A DNA stretch of 64,000 nucleotides from Candidatus Jorgensenbacteria bacterium GW2011_GWB1_50_10 (GTDB lineage Bacteria; Patescibacteriota; Minisyncoccia; UBA6257; GWB1-50-10). The notes under the pieces are model-generated. The model was not told the DNA's origin, searched no databases, and saw nothing but the letters and a program-made list of their open reading frames with translations. Positions within the stretch are counted from its first letter, which is position 1. The number at the start of each line of letters is the position of its first letter. The stretch covers positions 46,805 to 110,804 of the forward strand of contig LCQK01000003.1 in NCBI GenBank assembly GCA_001004105.1, written 5' to 3'. Positions 5,106 through 55,267 of this stretch are shown here, one piece after another. A program made the position numbers and the translations under genes.

Positions 5106-5972
5106 ATGGAGCCTTTACACGAGGGCAAATTAAAGCATTTAGAGGAGAAAGCAAACACAATAAGGGAGAAGGTTATTGAAACGCTCTTGGAGGCCGGTTC
5201 GGGGCACTCGGCCGGGCCCCTGGGGATGGCGGATATCTTCACCGCTCTTTATTTTCATGTTTTGCGGCATGACCCGAAGAAGCCGGATTGGGCCGACAGG
5301 GACAGATTAATACTCTCAAACGGCCACATTTGCCCGGTGCGCTACGTCGCGATGGCCTACGCCGGCTATTTTCCGGTGGAAGAATTGAAGACCCTCCGCA
5401 AATTGAACACGCGGCTGCAGGGCCACCCGCACCGGAGCGCTCTCCCCGGAGTGGAGACAACCTCGGGGCCCTTGGGTTCGGGGATTTCGCAGGCAATTGG
5501 CGTCGCTTTGGCCGCCCGGCTGGACAATAAAAAACACCGGGTCTATTGCATCACCTCCGACGGCGAGCATCAGGAGGGGAACACTTGGGAGGCGATAATG
5601 TTTGCCGGAAAAATGAAGCATCGCTTGAGTAACCTCACCGTTATTTTGGACCGGAATAACATCCAGATTGACGGTTACACTGAGAATGTGATGCCGCTGG
5701 AGCCCCTACGCGATAAATACGAAAAGTTCAGCTGGCACGTGATAGAAATTGACGGCCACAGCATGGTGCAGTTTACGGATGCGGTCGCCGAAGCGAGCGC
5801 GATTTATGAAAAGCCGACGGTGATTATCGCCCACACTATTCCGGGGAAAGGCGTGAGTTTTATGGAGCGCGACTTTACCTGGCACGGCAAGCCGCCGAAC
5901 AAGGAAGAGGCGGAAAAAGCTTTGACCGAGCTCCGCACGTTGGGTCAGAGAATTAAATCAGAACACGAATAA
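5106..5972 (+). CDS. transketolase, N-terminal (TPP-binding) subunit
   Basis: SGHSAGPLGMADI, SNGH and GPLGSG motifs; this is the split-type tkt. A TATAAT box at 5092-5097 lies 8 nt before the ATG. Confidence 0.9.
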   Translation: MEPLHEGKLKHLEEKANTIREKVIETLLEAGSGHSAGPLGMADIFTALYFHVLRHDPKKPDWADRDRLILSNGHICPVRYVAMAYAGYFPVEELKTLRKLNTRLQGHPHRSALPGVETTSGPLGSGISQAIGVALAARLDNKKHRVYCITSDGEHQEGNTWEAIMFAGKMKHRLSNLTVILDRNNIQIDGYTENVMPLEPLRDKYEKFSWHVIEIDGHSMVQFTDAVAEASAIYEKPTVIIAHTIPGKGVSFMERDFTWHGKPPNKEEAEKALTELRTLGQRIKSEHE

Positions 5973-10513: not shown

Positions 10514-11411
10514 CATGAGAAGTTTACTGGAGATAATCCGGGAAACGGAAAAAGATAAGGTTGCAATAGGCCATTTCAATATTTCCAACCTGGAGCAGTT
10601 AAAGGCGATATCGCATGTCGCGGCGAAACTCAACGTACCGGTCATTATCGGCACATCGGAGGGCGAACGGGACTATATTGGTGTTCATCACGCCGTTGAT
10701 CTCGTCAAAAGTTACAACAAGGAGCACGCAAAAGGAAATTATCGGCTGTTTTTGAACGCCGACCACACCCATACTTTAGAGAACGCGAGGAAAGCGGCTG
10801 AAGTCGGTTATGACGCGATATTATTTGACGGCGGCAAACTGCCCCTTGAAGAAAATATCAGGGCTACGAAAGAAGTCGTAGAAATGGTGAGAAAAATCAA
10901 CAAAAACATCTTAGTTGAAGGTGAGCTGGGCTATATCGGTTCGTCTTCGGAAGTAAGGAAGGAAATTCCGGAAGGGGCGGCGATTAATCCCGGGGATTTG
11001 ACCAGACCGGAGGAAGCAGCGAGGTTCGTTGAAGAAACCGGCGTGGATATGCTTGCGCCGGCGGTGGGGAACATTCACGGCATGTTCGCGAACGCTCCGG
11101 AGCCGCGGCTTGATATAGAACGCATCCGGGAAATCAAGAAAGCGGTTGAAAACCTGCCTGCCGGCAGGCAGGTCCCGCTTGTTTTGCACGGCGCCTCCGG
11201 CAACACCGATGAAGATTTAAGTGTGGCAATCGATGCTGGAATTTCCATAATCCACATTTCCACCGAGCTTCGCGTTGCTTGGCGCAAGGGTTTGGAAGAA
11301 GCTTTGAAGGAGAATCCTGACGAAGTCGCGCCCTACAAGCTGATGCCCGAGGATTTGGCAGAAATGGAGAAAGTGGTGGAGAGAAAATTACGCCTCTTCA
11401 ATAAACTGTAA
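10503..11411 (+). CDS. fba: fructose-bisphosphate aldolase, class II
   Basis: GHFNISN, DHTH and PLVLHGASG motifs. The gene contains an in-frame copy of the 20-bp palindrome (ENLPAGRQVPLVLHG). Confidence 0.9.
   Translation: MKFNMRSLLEIIRETEKDKVAIGHFNISNLEQLKAISHVAAKLNVPVIIGTSEGERDYIGVHHAVDLVKSYNKEHAKGNYRLFLNADHTHTLENARKAAEVGYDAILFDGGKLPLEENIRATKEVVEMVRKINKNILVEGELGYIGSSSEVRKEIPEGAAINPGDLTRPEEAARFVEETGVDMLAPAVGNIHGMFANAPEPRLDIERIREIKKAVENLPAGRQVPLVLHGASGNTDEDLSVAIDAGISIIHISTELRVAWRKGLEEALKENPDEVAPYKLMPEDLAEMEKVVERKLRLFNKL
11153..11172. repeat. 20-bp perfect palindrome CCTGCCTGCCGGCAGGCAGG, copy 1 (inside fba, read as LPAGRQ)
   Basis: Exact 20-mer that equals its own reverse complement. One flanking base on each side (A/T) extends it to 22 bp. 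Confidence 0.95.
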
Positions 11412-11437
11412 GAAGCAAAAGATTAGAAATACGCTTA

Positions 11438-11453
11438 CTATGACATGTCATAG
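11438..11453. repeat. 16-bp perfect palindrome CTATGACATGTCATAG (left copy; 19-bp identity ACTATGACATGTCATAGCG)
   Basis: The identical 19-mer recurs at 11877-11895. The two copies bracket the TrpR-like gene. Confidence 0.9.
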
Positions 11454-11457
11454 CGCG

Positions 11458-11856
11458 TCAATAATGGTGCATGTAGACTTTTCCGTATTTAGTGCGGCGG
11501 TAGTATCTATAGGGTTTCTTTTTAGAAGGGTGACTGCTGTTGTATACTTTCTTTTTCCGCCCCGTTTTGCCTCGTTCCCGGTAGCTCCGATAACCACTCC
11601 CTTCCAGCGCTTTTTTGATACTGCTTACGGTCTGCGGCGAGAGATGGAGTTCCTCGACAATCTGCACGAATTTTTTCCCTGAATTCATGCGGTCTGCTAC
11701 CGCGGCGCGCATAACAAGATTATGACGTTCGTTGGAGGTGGTAAATAGTTCCAAGAGTTCTCTGGATTCTGATATCTTCTTCCAGCACGCTCTTTCCCAT
11801 TCCTTACGCGAAGAGTACTGGTTGGTTGGCGGCAACGATAATAAATTCCTGGTCAT
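11458..11856 (-). CDS. TrpR/YerC/YecD-like HTH protein with basic C-terminal tail
   Basis: The segment LFTTSNERHNLVMRAAVADRMNSGKKFVQIVEELHLSPQTVSSIKKALE resembles the Trp-repressor-like family. The C-terminus is lysine/arginine/tyrosine-rich. Confidence 0.6.
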   Translation of the reverse strand: MTRNLLSLPPTNQYSSRKEWERACWKKISESRELLELFTTSNERHNLVMRAAVADRMNSGKKFVQIVEELHLSPQTVSSIKKALEGSGYRSYRERGKTGRKKKVYNSSHPSKKKPYRYYRRTKYGKVYMHHY

Positions 11857-11877
11857 AAGGTAAGTTTAACATATCAC

Positions 11878-11893
11878 TATGACATGTCATAGC
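11878..11893. repeat. 16-bp perfect palindrome CTATGACATGTCATAG (right copy)
   Basis: Lies 22 bp upstream of the TrpR-like start codon and 52 bp upstream of the DGR target promoter -35 box. Confidence 0.9.
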
Positions 11894-11944
11894 GTTTTTA
11901 CTGGGTAGTCAGTTGTTTTGTTGCTCTATTCTCGCATATAAAAT

Positions 11945-11973
11945 TGACAAGCTTGTATAAATAGGGTATACTT
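11945..11973 (+). promoter_or_regulatory. sigma-70-type promoter of DGR target gene 1
   Basis: TTGACA (11945-11950), a 17-bp spacer, then TATACT (11968-11973). This is about 80 nt upstream of the ATG at 12054. Confidence 0.6.
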
Positions 11974-12053
11974 TAGGGCAGTACAATAATGGTGAGTCTG
12001 CGGGTCTGGTAAATGCCGGACTGGGGGACGAACCACAAAAAGAGAGGTACAAG

Positions 12054-12749
12054 ATGGCGAAAAAGACGGATGAACTGGTGCAGTTTGCGGGCCACTTCCA
12101 GTCGCTCGCGACTGCGGTTTCCCGCAACCTCGAAGAGCGCGGCGTAAACGTTGTTGAGGCAATCGCGGAGGCCGCAAAGCCGCAAGGCGCTCGGGCGGTC
12201 GCGAAGATCGTAGACGCGCTCGCCGAACTCGTTGAAAACGGCAAGCGGGTCGTCGGCGCTCTCAATCTCATCGTGGCCGACATCGCCGTGAAGACCGAAC
12301 TCTTCACAAAAAATTCGTTCTTCGGCGAGGGGAGCCCAGTAAAACTCTACATCTGGGATAACTTCCGGAACTGGGTACTCACGGCTATCCTTGAGAATAT
12401 ACCTGCGTTCCAGGGTATGCTCGTGAAGCACCAACTCACGAAGGGGATGTATGACTCGGAGATTCTCTCCGGACTCGGGCATCCCACGCCGTTCTCACCA
12501 ACCGAGTTCGCGGCTGTCATTCGCGACCTCATCTCCAAGCAATCGAGAGGCGAGGAGGGCCTTCTCCTCACGAACGGCTACGCCAACATCTTCTATGTAC
12601 AGTTGCCTGCCGGCGCAGGCGGGGAAGATGCACGCGTGGTCGCGGTGCGCGTGACCTGGAACGCCGGGGACGACGACTGGCACCTGGACGCCTACGGCTT
12701 GGACGACGACGGGTGGGGTGACGGTGTCTGCGTGTTCTCTCGCAGCTGA
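12054..12749 (+). CDS. DGR target (variable) protein 1, 231 aa, unassigned family
   Basis: GC-rich ORF whose last 37 codons are the VR. It has no signal peptide or TM segment, and an SD-like AGAGAGG lies upstream of the ATG. A paralog lies at 48342..48932. Confidence 0.85.
   Translation: MAKKTDELVQFAGHFQSLATAVSRNLEERGVNVVEAIAEAAKPQGARAVAKIVDALAELVENGKRVVGALNLIVADIAVKTELFTKNSFFGEGSPVKLYIWDNFRNWVLTAILENIPAFQGMLVKHQLTKGMYDSEILSGLGHPTPFSPTEFAAVIRDLISKQSRGEEGLLLTNGYANIFYVQLPAGAGGEDARVVAVRVTWNAGDDDWHLDAYGLDDDGWGDGVCVFSRS
12602..12623. repeat. decayed copy of the 20-bp palindrome (17/20 with a 2-nt insertion) inside target 1, read as LPAGAGG
   Basis: GTTGCCTGCCGGCGCAGGCGGG lies 9 bp upstream of the VR. 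The paralog has a 6-codon shorter segment at this point (PEDGP versus LPAGAGGEDAR). Confidence 0.6.
12632..12743 (+). repeat. DGR variable repeat VR1
   Basis: 112 bp with 99/112 identity to the TR. All 13 differences lie at TR adenines. Confidence 0.9.
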
Positions 12750-12782
12750 TCTCGGATTTTCGGTCTCTTGGCAATAGTAGTG

Positions 12783-12823
12783 CGCCCCGTTCGAGTTCTT
12801 CGGAACTTGGACGGGGCGTTTTT
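12783..12823 (+). terminator. hairpin with UUCG loop plus T5 downstream of VR1 (intrinsic terminator and/or DGR target-recognition hairpin)
   Basis: 16-bp stem (12783-12798 pairs with 12803-12818, two G-U pairs), loop TTCG, then TTTTT. It starts 40 nt after the end of the VR. Confidence 0.7.
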
Positions 12824-12831
12824 GTTATAAT
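12823..12831 (+). promoter_or_regulatory. extended -10 box TGTTATAAT, candidate promoter of the TR-containing RNA
   Basis: A perfect TGnTATAAT sits directly after the terminator and about 170 nt upstream of the TR. I saw no convincing -35 box. Confidence 0.45.
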
Positions 12832-12998
12832 AAAAATGAAATTTTTTGACATCACTGCGGTCAAGGCTTCAGTGGGAAGATTTCAAAAAACAGAAAGGTC
12901 AGCTGGTGTAGGGCGCTAACGGGTGCGAAAGACCCGGCATTAGATGCAACGCTTAGAGGAATCAAAGCGCAGTGGCAAGGGCGGCGCTTTACACGATA

Positions 12999-13110
12999 AC
13001 GCGTGGTCGCGGTGAACGTGAACTGGAACGCCGAGAACGACGACTGGAACCTGAACGCCAACGGCTTGGACGACGACAGGTGGAATGACGGTAACTGCGT
13101 GTTCTCTCGC
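12999..13110 (+). repeat. DGR template repeat (TR)
   Basis: Non-coding and rich in AAC codons in the VR frame (encodes ...VNVNWNAENDDWNLNANGLDDDRWNDGNCVFSR). It is the adenine-bearing partner of VR1. Confidence 0.9.
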
Positions 13111-13125
13111 CGCTTACCTTTTATA

Positions 13126-13470
13126 TCAGTTCTTTGGGAGCTGTTTTAGCCAACCGCCCAGCATTTTTCCAACTTCGTCAACTTTTCCAGAAAGCGCGGC
13201 GTATTTTTTCGTGTCCAGAGATTTGATTTGCCAGGCAATTTGGAGGAAAAATTTTAGTGAGTCAAGTTTAAAAGAGGAATTCCTGATTTTTGCAAACCGT
13301 TCGGCTGGCGTGAGAGGGGCGGCTGAGAAAATTTCTTCGATAATATCCAAGAAAAGCAAATCTACTTTTACGCCGAGAGTATAGCGCGAGGTTTTGGGAA
13401 AATGAGGCGCGAATTCTTGCCAAAGCGTGTAGGCCGCGATTAGTTTCTGAATAATTGGCAGTTCATTCCG
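13126..13470 (-). CDS. avd: Avd-like accessory variability determinant (four-helix-bundle / 23S-IVS protein family); start codon unresolved
   Basis: The reading frame encodes NELPIIQKLIAAYTLWQEFAPHFPKTSRYTLGVKVDLLFLDIIEEIF...KYAALSGKVDEVGKMLGGWLKQ, a typical Avd pattern. There is no in-frame ATG, GTG or TTG upstream of 13359. An ATG at 13519 is out of frame by one base across a G9 tract. Confidence 0.7.
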   Translation of the reverse strand, partial: RNELPIIQKLIAAYTLWQEFAPHFPKTSRYTLGVKVDLLFLDIIEEIFSAAPLTPAERFAKIRNSSFKLDSLKFFLQIAWQIKSLDTKKYAALSGKVDEVGKMLGGWLKQLPKN

Positions 13471-13472
13471 TC

Positions 13473-13481
13473 GGGGGGGGG
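13473..13481. repeat. homopolymeric G9 (C9 on the avd strand) tract
   Basis: Nine consecutive G, 18-26 nt upstream of the RT ATG and inside the 5' region of avd. Loss of one base would fuse the ATG at 13519 to the avd frame. Confidence 0.9.
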
Positions 13482-13498
13482 TTAGAGGACGGGAATTT

Positions 13499-14482
13499 AT
13501 GAAAATTCAATTGAGCCATAAATTCGAAGATATTATTTCACTGGAAAATCTTTTGGAAGCATGGCGAGAATTTTTGCGCGGCAAGAGAAATAAAAGAGAC
13601 GTTCAGGAATTCTCATCGCGTTTAATGGATAACATTCTATTACTTCACAGCGAACTTCGCAATAAAACCTACAAGCACGGGAAGTACGAAGCCTTTAACA
13701 TCTCCGACCCCAAACCGAGAAACATCCACAAAGCCGCCGTCCGCGACCGCCTACTTCATTACGCTATTTACAGGGTTTTATATCCGTTTTTTGATAAGGT
13801 ATTCATCGCCGATTCTTTTTCCTGCCGTTTGGGAAAAGGGACGCACAGAGCCATCAACCGCTTTAGAACTTTTGCTTATAAAGTGAGTAAAAATAATACC
13901 AAAACCTGCTGGGTTTTAAAGTTGGATATTAGGAAATTCTTCGCGAGTATTGACCATGAAATTTTGATAAAAATTCTTGAGGAATACATACCCGACCAAG
14001 ACATTATCTGGTTGCTGAAGAAAGTGATAGAAAGTTTTTATTCGACCGAACCCGGCAAGGGCCTGCCTTTAGGCAATTTAACCTCCCAGCTTTTAGTAAA
14101 TGTTTACATGAACAAGTTTGACCAATTTGTGAAACACAAGTTCAAGGCCAAGTATTACGTGAGATACGCCGATGATTTTGTGATTGTGTCGAAAAACGGA
14201 ATATGGCTTGAAAGTTTAATTCCGAGAATCAGCGAATTTCTAAACAGAGAATTGAAGTTAAAACTTCACGACGATAAGATATTCATTAAAACTTTAGCTT
14301 CGGGAGTAGATTTCCTTGGCTGGGTTCACTTTCCGGATTACCGAGTTCTGCGAACCACGACCAAAAGAAGAATGTTTAAAAGAATCAAAGAACATCCCGC
14401 GCCGGAAACAATAAATTCTTATTTGGGATTATTAAGGCACGGGAACGCTTATAAATTAAAAAGAAAAATTATTGCTGAATAA
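13499..14482 (+). CDS. DGR-type reverse transcriptase
   Basis: 327 aa. The N-terminus reads [20 protein letters not shown]. Motif 4 [20 protein letters not shown] carries the SQ typical of DGR RTs, and the catalytic motif is [11 protein letters not shown]. There is no maturase or endonuclease extension, and the gene is visibly AT-rich. Confidence 0.9.
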
Positions 14483-14498
14483 TTTTTTTTGTGTTTTA

Positions 14499-15242
14499 AT
14501 GGCGTTTATGGAAGCTAGTATTAGCAAGATAATTTTAGAGATTCGGGCGGGCACGGGCGGGGACGAGGCCTCGCTTTTTGCCGGCGATTTGGCGCGGATG
14601 TATCAGAGGTTTGCCGCCCGGCGGGGCTGGAAATTCTCGACGCTCGATGCGAGCGAGTCCGGCGCGCGCGGCTATAAGACGTTCATCGCGGAGATCGGCG
14701 GCCCGGGCGTCTACGAGGCATTGAAGAACGAATCCGGCGTGCACCGGGTGCAGAGAGTGCCGGATACCGAACGGGGCGGCCGGGTGCATACCTCAACCGT
14801 ATCGGTCGCGGTTTTACCCGTAGTGGAAACCAAGGATTTTCAAATTAAAGAAAGCGATTTGGAAGTGACTTTCTCCCGCGCCGGCGGTCCCGGCGGCCAG
14901 AACGTGAACAAAGTGGAAACTGCGGTTCGAATCACCCATAAACCCACCGGCGTTGTCGTAGGTTCCAGGGAAGAACGGAGCCAGCACGCCAATCGCGAGA
15001 AAGCGATGGAGGTCTTGCGGGCCAAGCTTTACGAGGCGCAGAAAGAACAGCAAGTGGGGTCGGTTGCGGAGTTGCGGAGAGGGCAGATCGGCTCGGCCGG
15101 ACGGGCGGAGAAGGTAAGGACATATAATTTTCCGCAGGATAGAATTACAGATCACAGAGTAAGTAAAAAATGGAGTAATATTGAAAAGATATTAGAAGGT
15201 AATCTTGACCCAATCATACAGGCATTTTTGAAAGTCAATTAA
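14499..15242 (+). CDS. prfA: class I peptide chain release factor (RF1-like, PxT-type) lacking the N-terminal domain
   Basis: [27 protein letters not shown] (P-x-T), GGPGGQNVN (GGQ) and [14 protein letters not shown] motifs. RF1 homologs have about 100 more N-terminal residues. The start at ATG 14499 is inferred; the ORF track uses TTG 14472. Confidence 0.8.
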
Positions 15243-15248
15243 AAAATC

Positions 15249-15268
15249 CCTGCCTGCCGGCAGGCAGG
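15249..15268. repeat. 20-bp palindrome, copy 2 (junction between prfA stop and the displaced prfA 3' remnant)
   Basis: Exact CCTGCCTGCCGGCAGGCAGG, 6 nt after the prfA stop codon. Confidence 0.95.
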
Positions 15269-15379
15269 CGCACCTATAATTTTCCGCAGGACAGGATAAC
15301 CGACCACCGTCAGGGCAAAAAGGTTTCAAATATTCTGAAAGTTCTCGACGGCGATTTGGACAAACTAACCGGCCGTTAA
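15269..15379 (+). pseudogene. displaced original 3' end of prfA (36 codons plus stop, out of frame with prfA)
   Basis: Encodes [36 protein letters not shown]. It shares the 17-mer TATAATTTTCCGCAGGA with 15123-15139 and is GC-rich like the prfA core. Confidence 0.75.
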
Positions 15380-52899: not shown

Positions 52900-53412
52900 G
52901 TGGCCAAGACATCAAGAGATGCAAGAAGACATATAAGGGCAATAAGTGAGTTTTTTGCTGCCGGGAAAGCTGTAACCGAAGCCGCAGTTAATGATTTTAT
53001 CGGCACCTACAAAAAGAGGAAATTCTTAAAGCAAAGTTTGCGCCGGCTAATTGAAAAGGGTTTGGTTGAAAAGAAAAATAACAAGTTTGTTCCGACTCTC
53101 GCTGGTATCAGGTTTTTTCGTTCAAACATTGAGAGATCGTTGAAACCAAAAAATTGGGATGGTAAGTGGTACCTTTTAAGTTTTGACGTTCCGGTTAAAC
53201 TGAACGTAAAGAGAGACTATTTAAGAAGGGTGCTTAAAAGTTATGATTTTTATCCGCTCCAAAAGAGCGTTTGGGTGGGCCCGAATAAATTCGGCGACGA
53301 CCTTTGGGAATTTGTCGTTCAAAAGGAACTTAATAAATATTGCCGGGTTATGGTGGTGAGCGTTTTAGAAGGGGATGAGGATTTAAAAAAGTATTTCAAA
53401 ATCGGGTTTTAA
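52900..53412 (+). CDS. PaaX-like / Cas2-fold-containing putative regulator (GTG start)
   Basis: A winged-helix-like N-terminus (LRRLIEKGLVEKKNNKFVPTLAG) is followed by WDGKWYLLSFDVPVKLNVKRDYLRRVLKSYDFYPLQKSVWVGP. A TGTTATAAT box at 52885-52893 lies 6 nt before the GTG. Confidence 0.55.
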   Translation: MAKTSRDARRHIRAISEFFAAGKAVTEAAVNDFIGTYKKRKFLKQSLRRLIEKGLVEKKNNKFVPTLAGIRFFRSNIERSLKPKNWDGKWYLLSFDVPVKLNVKRDYLRRVLKSYDFYPLQKSVWVGPNKFGDDLWEFVVQKELNKYCRVMVVSVLEGDEDLKKYFKIGF

Positions 53413-53416
53413 TTTG

Positions 53417-53458
53417 TGTGCCTCAAAAACTCAGTATATGCTGAGTTTTTGAGGCACA
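53417..53458. terminator. 18-bp-stem hairpin after the PaaX-like gene (second family member)
   Basis: TGTGCCTCAAAAACTCAG TATATG CTGAGTTTTTGAGGCACA. Confidence 0.65.
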
Positions 53459-53503
53459 AACATGGTTAATTTGTTTAAATATTCAGTGGTATAATATTTA
53501 GTA

Positions 53504-55267
53504 ATGTCAGAAACGAGAATTTGCCAGAATTGCAAGCAACAATTCACGATTGAGCCGGACGATTTCGCGTTTTATAAAAAGATAAGCGTCCCGCCACCGA
53601 CGTGGTGCCCGGAGTGCAGGTTAGTGAGAAGGTTAATTGTTCGTAATGAACGGAGTTTGTATAGAAGAATCTGTGATCTTTGTGGAAAAGAGAAAATAAT
53701 GATGTTTTATCCTCAAAGTCCTTTCAAGGTATATTGCTACGAATGTTGGTTTGGCGATAACTGGAATCCAATGGGGTATGGGAAAGAATATGACTTTTCA
53801 CAGCCCTTTTTCGAACAGTTTAGTGATTTGCTCCATGTGGTACCGAGGCCGGGGATTCTAAAACAAGGATTCGCTATTGAGAGTGAATACACCAACCGAG
53901 TCAGCGAAATTAGAAATTGTTATCTTATTTTTGGCTCAACAGCTAGCGAAAACTGTTTTTACGGTTCGTGGGTAAATGATTCTAAAGAATGCGTTGACTG
54001 TTACAACCTCGGCAAATGCGAAAGATGTTATGACTGCACCGATTGTGTCGGTTGCTATAACCTTCAGTACTCTCGTGACTGCCATAGTTGCAGTAATTCT
54101 TATTTTCTTTTGAATTGCCGCAACTGCGAGAGTTGCTTTGGTTGCACGAATCTCCGCAATAAAAGCTACTGTGTTTTTAATAAACAATACGGCAAGGAGG
54201 AATATCAAAAACTACTCGAGGAACACAATTTGAAAAGCTCAGCCGCTATCAAAAGACTCCAGTCCCGGTTCATTTCGGAGCGTTCCAAGCATATTGTGCC
54301 GTCAATAATCCAACATCACAGTACGGATGTAAGCGGTAACTGGATTGAAGAATCCAAGAATGTTCATTACAGCTTCAACTGCCGAAATGTCGAGGATGGT
54401 AAGTACGTACTGGCGGCAGTAATTGCAAAAGATGTAATGGATTATGCTCATTTCGGACGCGGCGTTGAACGTATTTATGATTCAATCAACATTGGCCGCC
54501 AAGCCTCATCCGTCTTTTTTAGCAATGAAAGCTGGGACCAATCTTCAAATTTGCAGTATTGCATGAATTGCCGAGGTTCACAGAACCTTTTCGGGTGCAT
54601 CGGAGTTCGTAACAAAAGTTACTGTATCTTGAACAGGGAATATACCAAAGAAGAATACGAGAAGCTGGTTCCCCGCATTATTGAGCACATGAATACTATG
54701 CCCTACGCCGACAAGAAAGATAGGGTATACAAGTACGGCGAATTTTTCCCGCCGGAAATAACGCCATTCGCTTATAACGAGTCCCTCTCCCAAGAATTTT
54801 TTCCTCTAACAAAAGAAAGAGCGTCAGAACTCGGGTACCGCTGGAAAGATGAAGAGAATCGGAGCTACAAGATAACTGTAAAAAATAACGAAATTCCTGA
54901 TACTATTCGACTTGTTTCCGACGCGATACTCGATGATGTCATTGGCTGCGAACATGGTGGAAAATGCAACGAACAGTGCACGACGGCTTTTAAAATTGTT
55001 CCTCAAGAGCTTAATTTTTATAGACAATTTAATATTCCCCTTCCAAATCTTTGTCCCAACTGCCGTCATTATCAGAGATTAAAACAAAGAAATCCCCTAA
55101 AGCTTTGGCACAGAAAATGTATGTGTGATTACCAGGTTTATAAAAATACGGTGAAGCACGTTCATCATCCGGAAGGAAAGTGCCCGAACGAATTTAAAAC
55201 GTCCTACGCCCCCGAGAGGCCGGAAATCGTCTACTGCGAGCAGTGTTATAATTTCGAGGTAGTATGA
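53504..55267 (+). CDS. cysteine-rich protein with N- and C-terminal zinc-ribbon-like modules and internal Cys-repeat region
   Basis: CQNCKQQFTIEPDDFAFYKKISVPPPTWCPECR, repeated C..C..C.NL..S..C units (residues about 150-215), and a C-terminal CPNCRHYQRLK...CEQCY. A TATAAT box at 53490-53495 lies 8 nt before the ATG. Confidence 0.6.
   Translation: MSETRICQNCKQQFTIEPDDFAFYKKISVPPPTWCPECRLVRRLIVRNERSLYRRICDLCGKEKIMMFYPQSPFKVYCYECWFGDNWNPMGYGKEYDFSQPFFEQFSDLLHVVPRPGILKQGFAIESEYTNRVSEIRNCYLIFGSTASENCFYGSWVNDSKECVDCYNLGKCERCYDCTDCVGCYNLQYSRDCHSCSNSYFLLNCRNCESCFGCTNLRNKSYCVFNKQYGKEEYQKLLEEHNLKSSAAIKRLQSRFISERSKHIVPSIIQHHSTDVSGNWIEESKNVHYSFNCRNVEDGKYVLAAVIAKDVMDYAHFGRGVERIYDSINIGRQASSVFFSNESWDQSSNLQYCMNCRGSQNLFGCIGVRNKSYCILNREYTKEEYEKLVPRIIEHMNTMPYADKKDRVYKYGEFFPPEITPFAYNESLSQEFFPLTKERASELGYRWKDEENRSYKITVKNNEIPDTIRLVSDAILDDVIGCEHGGKCNEQCTTAFKIVPQELNFYRQFNIPLPNLCPNCRHYQRLKQRNPLKLWHRKCMCDYQVYKNTVKHVHHPEGKCPNEFKTSYAPERPEIVYCEQCYNFEVV

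Follow-up and report, generated by a model that had tools for sequence, protein, structure and literature searches.

A predicted DGR of the standard CPR type and a family-wide GC contrast between its target and reverse transcriptase genes

The first survey of DGRs in CPR bacteria is reportedly the one that Paul et al. published in Nat Microbiol in 2017. In the CPR set of Wu et al. (2018, NAR, PMC5758913), architecture B3, TR-(avd)-RT, accounts for 90% of the DGRs, and the same study used the GC content of the whole DGR compared with that of the host as a signal of transfer. DGR clade 2 is limited to Patescibacteria and has targets without recognisable domains (Roux et al. 2021, PMC8144416).

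Here, we present an analysis of a DGR-like locus in the window, by which we mean the whole 64-kb stretch of DNA that was analysed. The initial annotation of this locus had described a DGR-type reverse transcriptase (RT) gene that is compositionally unlike its own target gene and template repeat (TR), and had taken this difference to suggest modular assembly or recent acquisition of the RT module. By combining profile and structure searches, base composition and codon usage analyses and a comparison with related loci, we arrive at another reading, which we hold to be very probable: the locus is an ordinary complete CPR DGR, the contrast in composition is intrinsic to it and family-wide, and the whole cassette is the unit of gain or loss.

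The reverse transcriptase and the surrounding DGR

The locus comprises the following features (coordinates in the window):

11944-11972, plus strand: sigma-70-like promoter, near-consensus TTGACA-17-TATACT with 11/12 matches, ~81 nt 5' of the target ATG
12054-12749, plus strand: DGR target gene, 231 aa, 59.9% GC, GC3 0.75
12632-12743, plus strand: variable repeat (VR), encoding the last ~37 residues of the target
12782-12819, plus strand: GC-rich 17-bp hairpin followed by a T-run, terminator-like, 33 nt after the target stop
12999-13110, plus strand: TR, with 27 adenines and 8 AAC codons
13126-13461, minus strand: avd accessory gene, convergent with the TR and divergent from the RT gene
13127-13147, plus strand: weak hairpin CAGTTCT-TTG-GGAGCTG followed by TTTT, directly after the TR and overlapping the avd stop codon
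13473-13481, plus strand: G9 homopolymer between the avd and RT starts, the sole G/C run of at least 8 in the 64-kb window
13499-14482, plus strand: DGR RT gene, 327 aa, ATG start, intact ORF, 38.5% GC

The product of 13499-14482 is predicted to be a DGR-type RT, a class assignment that rests on score gaps and genomic context. RVT_1 is the only Pfam domain of the ORF (residues 72-275, E 9.7e-27), and Pfam detected neither a maturase (X) nor an endonuclease domain. Thus, the initial annotation was right in describing an RT without maturase X, endonuclease or retron-type extensions, and both of the motifs that it quoted for a DGR-type RT are present in the ORF. The ORF contains LGNLTSQ, which fits the [I/L]GxxxSQ motif of the DGR clade; this motif marks DGR RTs, whereas group II and retron RTs have QGxxxSP at the same place. 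Among solved structures, the top relative is 8ub7_A (328 aa; E 1.1e-40, 143 bits, residues 9-308 aligned), a PDB entry titled only 'Reverse transcriptase' that we take to be the Bordetella-phage Brt, as recognised from the aligned sequence. By comparison, group-II-like RTs in the PDB reach at best 84 bits (E ~1e-22) and retron RTs ~21 bits or less (E 1.5e-3 or worse). Likewise, DGR RTs are the top matches in phage and plasmid collections: those of BalMu-1, BPP-1 (Brt) and an Alteromonas plasmid score 150-236 bits, while the group II RTs in these collections score at most 99 bits with partial coverage.

The names in the source annotations ('retron-type' or 'group II intron RT') would instead make this a retron or group II intron RT, and a defence-associated (DRT/Abi) RT is a related alternative. 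In favour of a non-DGR RT, the best NCBIfam match is group_II_RT_mat (TIGR04416) at 148.9 bits; however, this score is below the cutoff of 300, and NCBIfam holds no model for DGR RTs. The score of retron_St85_RT (60.5 bits; cutoff, 235) is similarly too low, and every group II, retron, Abi and DRT model of NCBIfam and PADLOC scored under its cutoff on the RT. Moreover, an Rfam scan of 11300-14700 (E ≤ 1) returned only a chance miRNA match and no group II intron or retron RNA. Group II and retron RTs share the palm and finger domains (RVT_1) with the RT described here, but their similarity to it is far weaker, and the locus is without a maturase or endonuclease, intron RNA and msr/msd RNA. Together with the gaps between the PDB scores and with the adenine-only TR/VR changes and the avd gene alongside (see below), these observations leave a non-DGR RT with practically no credence.

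A protein identical to this RT is already public; it comes from a genome in the GW2011 groundwater series that is assigned to Candidatus Jorgensenbacteria. Its name at NCBI, 'Retron-type reverse transcriptase', should be corrected to a DGR RT of the standard CPR type. The nearest other RT is 83% identical at the protein level and lies on a 2-kb contig. Where homologues at 64-83% identity are named, nearly all are from CPR/Patescibacteria MAGs, with a few carrying other automatic labels, and we infer that the RT is a member of the DGR clade of Patescibacteria.

For comparison, we assembled 80 related loci from many CPR lineages, scanning one genome per species; their RTs are 64-76% identical. 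With RT, TR and VR, a VR at the 3' end of the target gene and Avd all present, the element in the window reads as a complete DGR. Over the 112 nt of the repeats, TR and VR differ at 13 positions. Each of these is an adenine in the TR and falls on codon position 1 or 2; these adenine-specific differences show past DGR activity. The adenines of the TR as a whole are placed in the same manner, 26 of the 27 lying at codon positions 1-2 and one at a third position. TR and VR share the 3' end CTGCGTGTTCTCTCGC, beyond which the two copies diverge, and this shared end, taken with the GC-rich hairpin past the VR, resembles the IMH of DGRs. The hairpin at 12782-12819 occupies the place that the inverted repeat downstream of the IMH has in other DGRs. 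The VR ends at 12743, 3 nt before the target stop codon (12747-12749); in the relatives, the target stop also lies mostly within ~30 nt of the VR end. The spacing of the element is equally conserved: relative to the RT start, the TR spans ~-530 to -400 and the VR ~-1000 to -870 in the relatives, and the same holds in the window. Finally, avd is on the opposite strand in 75/75 related loci.

The target gene matched no family in Pfam or NCBIfam, and only 39 homologues of it were found. An AlphaFold model (pLDDT 87.7) had no strong fold match in the PDB, and a phmmer search against the PDB returned nothing. By contrast, avd is recognised by Pfam bAvd (E 1.8e-10; 41.7 bits, above the cutoff of 40) and, at a score below the cutoff of 80, by NCBIfam DivGenRetAVD (E 3.6e-17; full profile, positions 1-104, 62.6 bits). 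The avd frame is of full length but has no ATG, GTG or TTG start; the start codon is probably the CTG at 13461-13459, which occupies the site of a TTG in many relatives.

By homology to BPP-1, RNA of the TR would be copied by the RT with the help of Avd, and this copying would be error-prone at adenines. The cDNA would then replace the VR at the 3' end of the target gene, thereby diversifying ~13 codons. Three independent assemblies of the organism are 100% identical over 11401-15300, including the VR, although such consensus sequences cannot reveal minor variants.

Two short elements flank the avd gene. In the relatives, a hairpin with a U-tract follows the TR in the predicted fold of essentially all of 55 loci, with a mean of -17.3 ± 4.8 kcal/mol; the hairpin in the window, at -6.6 kcal/mol, is the weakest of the 56. 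A run of G8-G11 lies 5' of the RT start in 71/80 related loci. Runs of at least 8 occur 71 times at this position versus twice elsewhere in 828 kb of the relatives. A literature search on the G-run gave nothing relevant, and the run was not found in the DGR papers searched. As a separate observation, the probable CTG start of avd and the weakest post-TR hairpin could indicate that the element in the window is weakening.

Cassette borders and the empty site

Synteny with and without the RT could be compared in a sister Jorgensenbacteria genome (L081). This genome has the same neighbourhood, with a prfA of ~73% nucleotide identity and the gene order PfkB, fba, a TrpR-like HTH gene (minus strand), prfA, SLT, L25 and L31, but it has no DGR between the HTH gene and prfA. 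Its homology to the window stops past the HTH gene and the downstream palindrome (by ~11895) and resumes at ~14452-14471. This places the left border of the cassette between 11896 and 11943, with the promoter at the left end. On the right, the last RT codons and the stop codon overlap sequence that is common to the DGR-free sister genome, and it is also at this border that nucleotide homology with other DGRs stops. The cassette is ~2.6 kb (~11896-14470), extends from the promoter to the RT stop and sits in a variable slot between fba-HTH and prfA. Two further relatives have other cargo in the fba-prfA slot, and none of the 80 related loci shares the flanking gene arrangement of the window. No convincing target-site duplication was found at the ends of the cassette, and no recombinase gene was found for it. 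We also asked whether the cassette includes the HTH gene (11458-11856) and the palindromes that flank it, and rejected this since the sister genome without the DGR has them as well.

Because the sister genome lacks the entire cassette, we conclude that the whole cassette, and not the RT gene alone, is the unit of gain or loss. It was either gained in the lineage of the window or lost in the sister lineage, in both cases as one piece.

The RT stop codon (14480-14482) and the prfA ATG (14499) are separated by 16 nt, as originally reported. By contrast, the description of this prfA as truncated does not hold. RF1 is 247 aa here and is without the N-terminal ~100 residues of canonical RF1; however, the best 120 RF1 homologues, from Jorgensenbacteria, Brennerbacteria and others, are all 240-291 aa, and prfA is just as short in the sister genome without the DGR. 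The short form is a lineage-wide trait, and we reject a truncation of prfA by the insertion because an RF1 of 240-250 aa is the norm of the lineage.

Base composition in the window and across related loci

GC content was ranked against the 48 ORFs and the 984-nt sliding windows of the 64-kb window, which has a GC content of 49.2% as a whole. The RT gene has the lowest GC content of the 48 ORFs (z = -2.5) and falls in the bottom 0.29% of the sliding windows. It was therefore rightly singled out as AT-rich, although the estimate by eye of roughly one third G+C is somewhat below the true value of 38.5%. The target gene is the opposite extreme, with the highest GC content of all ORFs (z = +2.5; top 0.27% of the sliding windows). 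The TR has 55.7% and the VR 65.7% GC, and the neighbours are intermediate, with 49.4% for fba and 53.4% for RF1. Thus, the GC-rich target and TR and the intermediate neighbours of the initial annotation are borne out, and the break between RT and target is real and statistically extreme within the window.

The GC deviations of RT and target are due to amino acid composition and to codon choice, each contributing about half. When GC content is predicted from the amino acids with the average codon usage of the window, the RT gene is expected at 43.6% and the target gene at 53.6%. In the RT and Avd, Lys, Ile, Phe, Asn and Tyr are abundant, and Lys, Glu and Gln are encoded by A-ending codons. The abundant residues of the target are Ala, Gly, Val and Asp, and its gene has a strong preference for codons that end in C or G. 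At third codon positions, the RT gene has a GC3 of 0.453 versus 0.553 expected and the target gene 0.753 versus 0.593 expected. The two values differ in rank: the GC3 of the target is the highest in the window, whereas that of the RT is unexceptional (z = -1.6), with four more ORFs as low or within 0.004. At synonymous sites, the gene that stands out is the target rather than the RT. The fraction of C-ending codons is 0.73 in the target gene, compared with 0.55 in a set of rpoB/rpoC and ribosomal-protein genes of the window and 0.50 in the background.

The flanks of the related loci span 28 to 56% GC. The RT gene has a lower GC content than its flanks in 68/72 loci, by 5.6 points on average, and its GC content tracks that of the flanks, and hence of the host (r = 0.74, slope 0.59). 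The RT gene of the window lies at 0.7 residual SD under the family regression on host GC. For the target gene the sign is reversed, with a higher GC content than the flanks in 50/50 loci (+12.5 points; +10.1 points for the part outside the VR); the target gene of the window lies 0.9 residual SD above the family regression. The GC gap between target and RT is 18.1 ± 4.7 points in the family, and the 21.4 points of the window correspond to the 80th percentile. Along the averaged GC profile, there is a step up at the target start, a peak at the VR and a return to host level in the VR-TR spacer, followed by a rise at the TR, a drop over avd and RT and host level again after the RT stop. The slope of 0.59 rather than 1 fits constraint on the RT gene, and also fits repeated transfer among CPR hosts.

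The synonymous sites of the relatives agree with those of the window. RT GC3 lies only 4.6 points under the host-gene value and correlates with it (r = 0.62), while target GC3 exceeds the host-gene value by 20.7 points and is uncorrelated with it (r = 0.15); target GC3 is ~0.63 in the relatives, compared with a host-gene mean of ~0.43. A high GC3 is also found in targets without detectable similarity to that of the window, and it is found across VR classes. This partition of GC content across the family was not found in the DGR papers searched.

Because the contrast is found in all relatives, it is not a mark of a recent RT acquisition. Could the RT gene nevertheless have been acquired alone and recently, or the cassette have been assembled from parts of different origin, with the GC contrast as a relic? 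Two observations speak for this, namely, that RT and target, the two GC extremes of the window, adjoin each other and that, across the family, divergence or replacement is much faster for targets than for RTs. Indeed, in many relatives with equally similar RTs (70-73% identity), the target has no detectable similarity to that of the window. A co-evolution test of RT identity versus target or Avd similarity was uninformative, with RT identities spanning only 64-76%. On the other side, the same contrast, with the same sign and approximately the same size, is present in 50/50 relatives with the same architecture and spacing, and the values of the window are within 1 residual SD of the family regressions. 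In addition, RT GC follows host GC, RT GC3 is no outlier in the window, and the entire cassette, not just the RT gene, is absent from the sister genome. We therefore regard a recent RT swap as very improbable and do not adopt the suggestion of the initial annotation that the element was assembled from modules or acquired its RT recently. Rather, the GC contrast is intrinsic to the cassette and common to the whole family. Target modules may still have been exchanged over long periods.

A different possibility is that the whole cassette was transferred recently and that its composition reflects the donor genome. The empty syntenic site in the sister genome, the other cargo in two relatives and the different genomic context in 80/80 related loci are in line with this possibility, and atypical GC content has been used in the literature as a sign of DGR transfer (PMC5758913). 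However, one donor cannot give a target at +11 points and an RT at -11 points relative to the host, and the family profile shows host-level GC in the VR-TR spacer. Furthermore, with the nearest RT 83% identical and on a 2-kb contig, no very recent donor is seen. We consider a composition inherited from a recent donor unlikely.

The GC content of the target could also be lifted by a local mutational process, either a spill-over of adenine mutagenesis through long cDNAs or GC-biased repair of cDNA/VR heteroduplexes. Consistent with such a process, GC content peaks in the VR (+17 to +22 points) and increases slightly toward it within the target, and targets avoid A-ending codons for Lys, Glu and Gln. 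Yet the profile changes in a step at the target start and is back at baseline right downstream of the VR. In the part of the target outside the VR, T3 is 0.135 versus 0.248 in the background and A3 is 0.141 versus 0.185, with a similar pattern in the meta-profile, and the A fraction at fourfold sites of the window's target is not under background. Spill-over of adenine mutagenesis was rejected because T3 is more depleted than A3, and GC-biased conversion centred on the VR was rejected on account of the step-like profile that reaches baseline just past the VR. Overall, a mutational origin of the target's GC content appears distinctly unlikely.

Under the preferred reading of an intrinsic contrast, each part of the cassette would have its own reason for its composition. 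The TR and VR would be G+C-rich by the design of a DGR, in which adenines are kept only at the codons to be varied. RT and avd would lie ~6 GC points under any host while following host GC, with A/T-ending codons; a GC content lower than that of the host is common in mobile genes generally. The target would use G/C-ending, and especially C-ending, codons regardless of the host. As for the cause of this codon choice, high expression of the target is a plausible explanation on sequence grounds. Strong promoters fit such expression: in addition to the 11/12 promoter in the window, a promoter of at least 10/12 matches lies upstream of the target in 27/48 relatives versus 13/240 control windows, and nine of these promoters are perfect. 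The codon bias of the target exceeds that of the rpoB/rpoC and ribosomal-protein set, so expression alone may not explain target GC3.

We speculate, as a tentative alternative with a small chance of being correct, that the partition is a selected design, with targets of unrelated sequence and VR class held at a GC3 of ~0.63 in any host, AT-rich RT and avd genes, and the G-run and the hairpin as conserved cis elements. If so, the G8-G11 run and the post-TR hairpin might act as an expression switch or as elements of the DGR RNA. No such design was found in the DGR papers searched. The host-independent target GC3 and the conserved G-run may relate to how DGRs are expressed.

These findings bear on how the base composition of DGRs is read. 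A jump in GC content inside a DGR cassette is by itself no evidence of module swapping. Moreover, because the deviations of the two halves of the cassette have opposite signs, a transfer test that compares the GC content of the whole element with that of the host can cancel or mislead.

Comparison with known DGRs

The BPP-1 DGR, with the order mtd-VR, avd, TR and brt, shares most of its components with the element in the window. The RTs have nearly the same length (327 aa here versus 328 aa) and have LGxxxSQ and YxDD in common, and both elements have Avd and an AAC-rich TR for adenine mutagenesis. In both, the target gene carries the VR at its 3' end, and a GC-rich hairpin follows the VR. The RTs themselves are ~29% identical. 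In BPP-1, avd precedes the TR on the same strand, whereas here it is reversed and lies between TR and RT. The BPP-1 DGR is also phage-borne, with a tail fibre as target, whereas the element in the window is chromosomal.

The composition of the phage DGRs differs from that of the CPR family. In BPP-1, the contrast is small, with 65.9% GC for mtd versus 61.3% for brt and a GC3 of 0.86 versus 0.82. In BalMu-1, the target has 44.7% and the RT 35.3% GC, but GC3 is equal, and in Magia the contrast is absent, with 62.5% for the target and 64.3% for the RT. Unlike these three phage DGRs, the CPR clade has a target-RT gap of 18 points with a large GC3 component.

The closest described systems are the CPR DGRs of architecture B3, which have the same order of target-VR, TR, reversed avd and RT, a small target without domains and a chromosomal location. 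Nothing essential differs in the window. The local peculiarities relative to the CPR relatives are the probable CTG start of avd, the weakest post-TR hairpin and an RT stop within the sequence of the empty site. Altogether, we conclude that the element is a typical representative of a class known from earlier work, the CPR DGRs of architecture B3.

The G homopolymer and the avd start

The divergent starts of avd and the RT gene are separated in the window by the following element.

13473-13481: homopolymer of nine G residues (G9)

This G9 is the sole run of eight or more residues within the 64 kb of the window. In the 80 related DGR loci, the corresponding run is most often G10 (range 8 to 14), with the RT start ~19 nt downstream of it; of the runs of at least eight residues in these loci, 71 are found at the avd-RT position vs two elsewhere in 828 kb. 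The run could be a promoter spacer, a phase-variable tract, or an RNA element. When translated in the avd frame, the G9 tract reads 'PPP' immediately upstream of the Avd N-terminus.

The open frame of avd in the window (13126-13461, minus strand) contains no ATG, GTG, or TTG; at the conserved LPIIQKL position, it has CTG, while many relatives have TTG. Because a canonical start codon was likewise not found in 19 of the 76 avd genes considered among the related loci, the sequences suggest non-canonical initiation in the avd gene family.

Some related loci have a second TR/VR pair farther upstream of the RT; its TR is located as follows relative to the RT start.

L045: upstream TR of the second pair, at −1994
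L059: upstream TR of the second pair, at −2920

The second pair in L059 has its own G8 run ~400 nt past its TR. Such pairs could be a tandem or a remnant second cassette.

Target promoters and the predicted hairpin 3' of TR

Near-consensus sigma-70-like promoters precede the targets of the DGR clade to which the window's element belongs, both in the window itself (11944-11972) and in the related loci, and lie up to ~130 nt, often 80 to 120 nt, upstream of the start codon. When the 160 nt preceding each target of the related loci were scored alongside 240 control windows, 17 of 48 loci reached at least 11 out of 12 vs 2 of the 240 controls; in nine of the 48 loci, the target is preceded by a perfect TTGACA-N16-18-TATAAT.

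In an alignment of 56 loci (the window and 55 relatives), essentially all 55 relatives have, just 3' of TR, a predicted 7- to 11-bp hairpin with a U-tract after it, ~20 nt past TR and downstream of a conserved CGCAAC motif. The stem sequences vary among loci in a compensatory manner, and the hairpin of the window (13127-13147) is the weakest of the 56. The element resembles either a terminator, intrinsic or bidirectional, placed between TR and avd, which are convergent, or an element of the DGR RNA.

The fba-prfA interval

RF1 of the window (14499-15242) has 247 aa and lacks the N-terminal domain, and its PCRF profile match begins at position 96. All of the 120 best homologues (240 to 291 aa), which derive from Jorgensenbacteria, Brennerbacteria, and Paceibacterota, share this short form.

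The fba-prfA interval of Jorgensenbacteria is a variable slot; two further relatives have the following genes in it.

L082, 2930-5932: three unknown ORFs
L083, 5109-5624: PaaX_M/Cas2-like gene

A similar PaaX_M-like ORF (52900-53412, 39.4% GC) is present in the window, where it adjoins a 587-aa ORF (42% GC); the two ORFs make up the window's other low-GC island (52900-55267).

The TrpR-like HTH gene of the window (11458-11856, minus strand) is flanked on both sides by a palindrome.

11441-11457: palindrome TATGACATGTCATA
11878-11895: palindrome TATGACATGTCATA

An extended form of the palindrome, GGTGGTATGAC(A/G)TGTCATACCACC, is kept in the DGR-free sister genome L081 at about 5415-5438 and 5880-5903. 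Both copies are probably operator sites of the TrpR-like HTH regulator.
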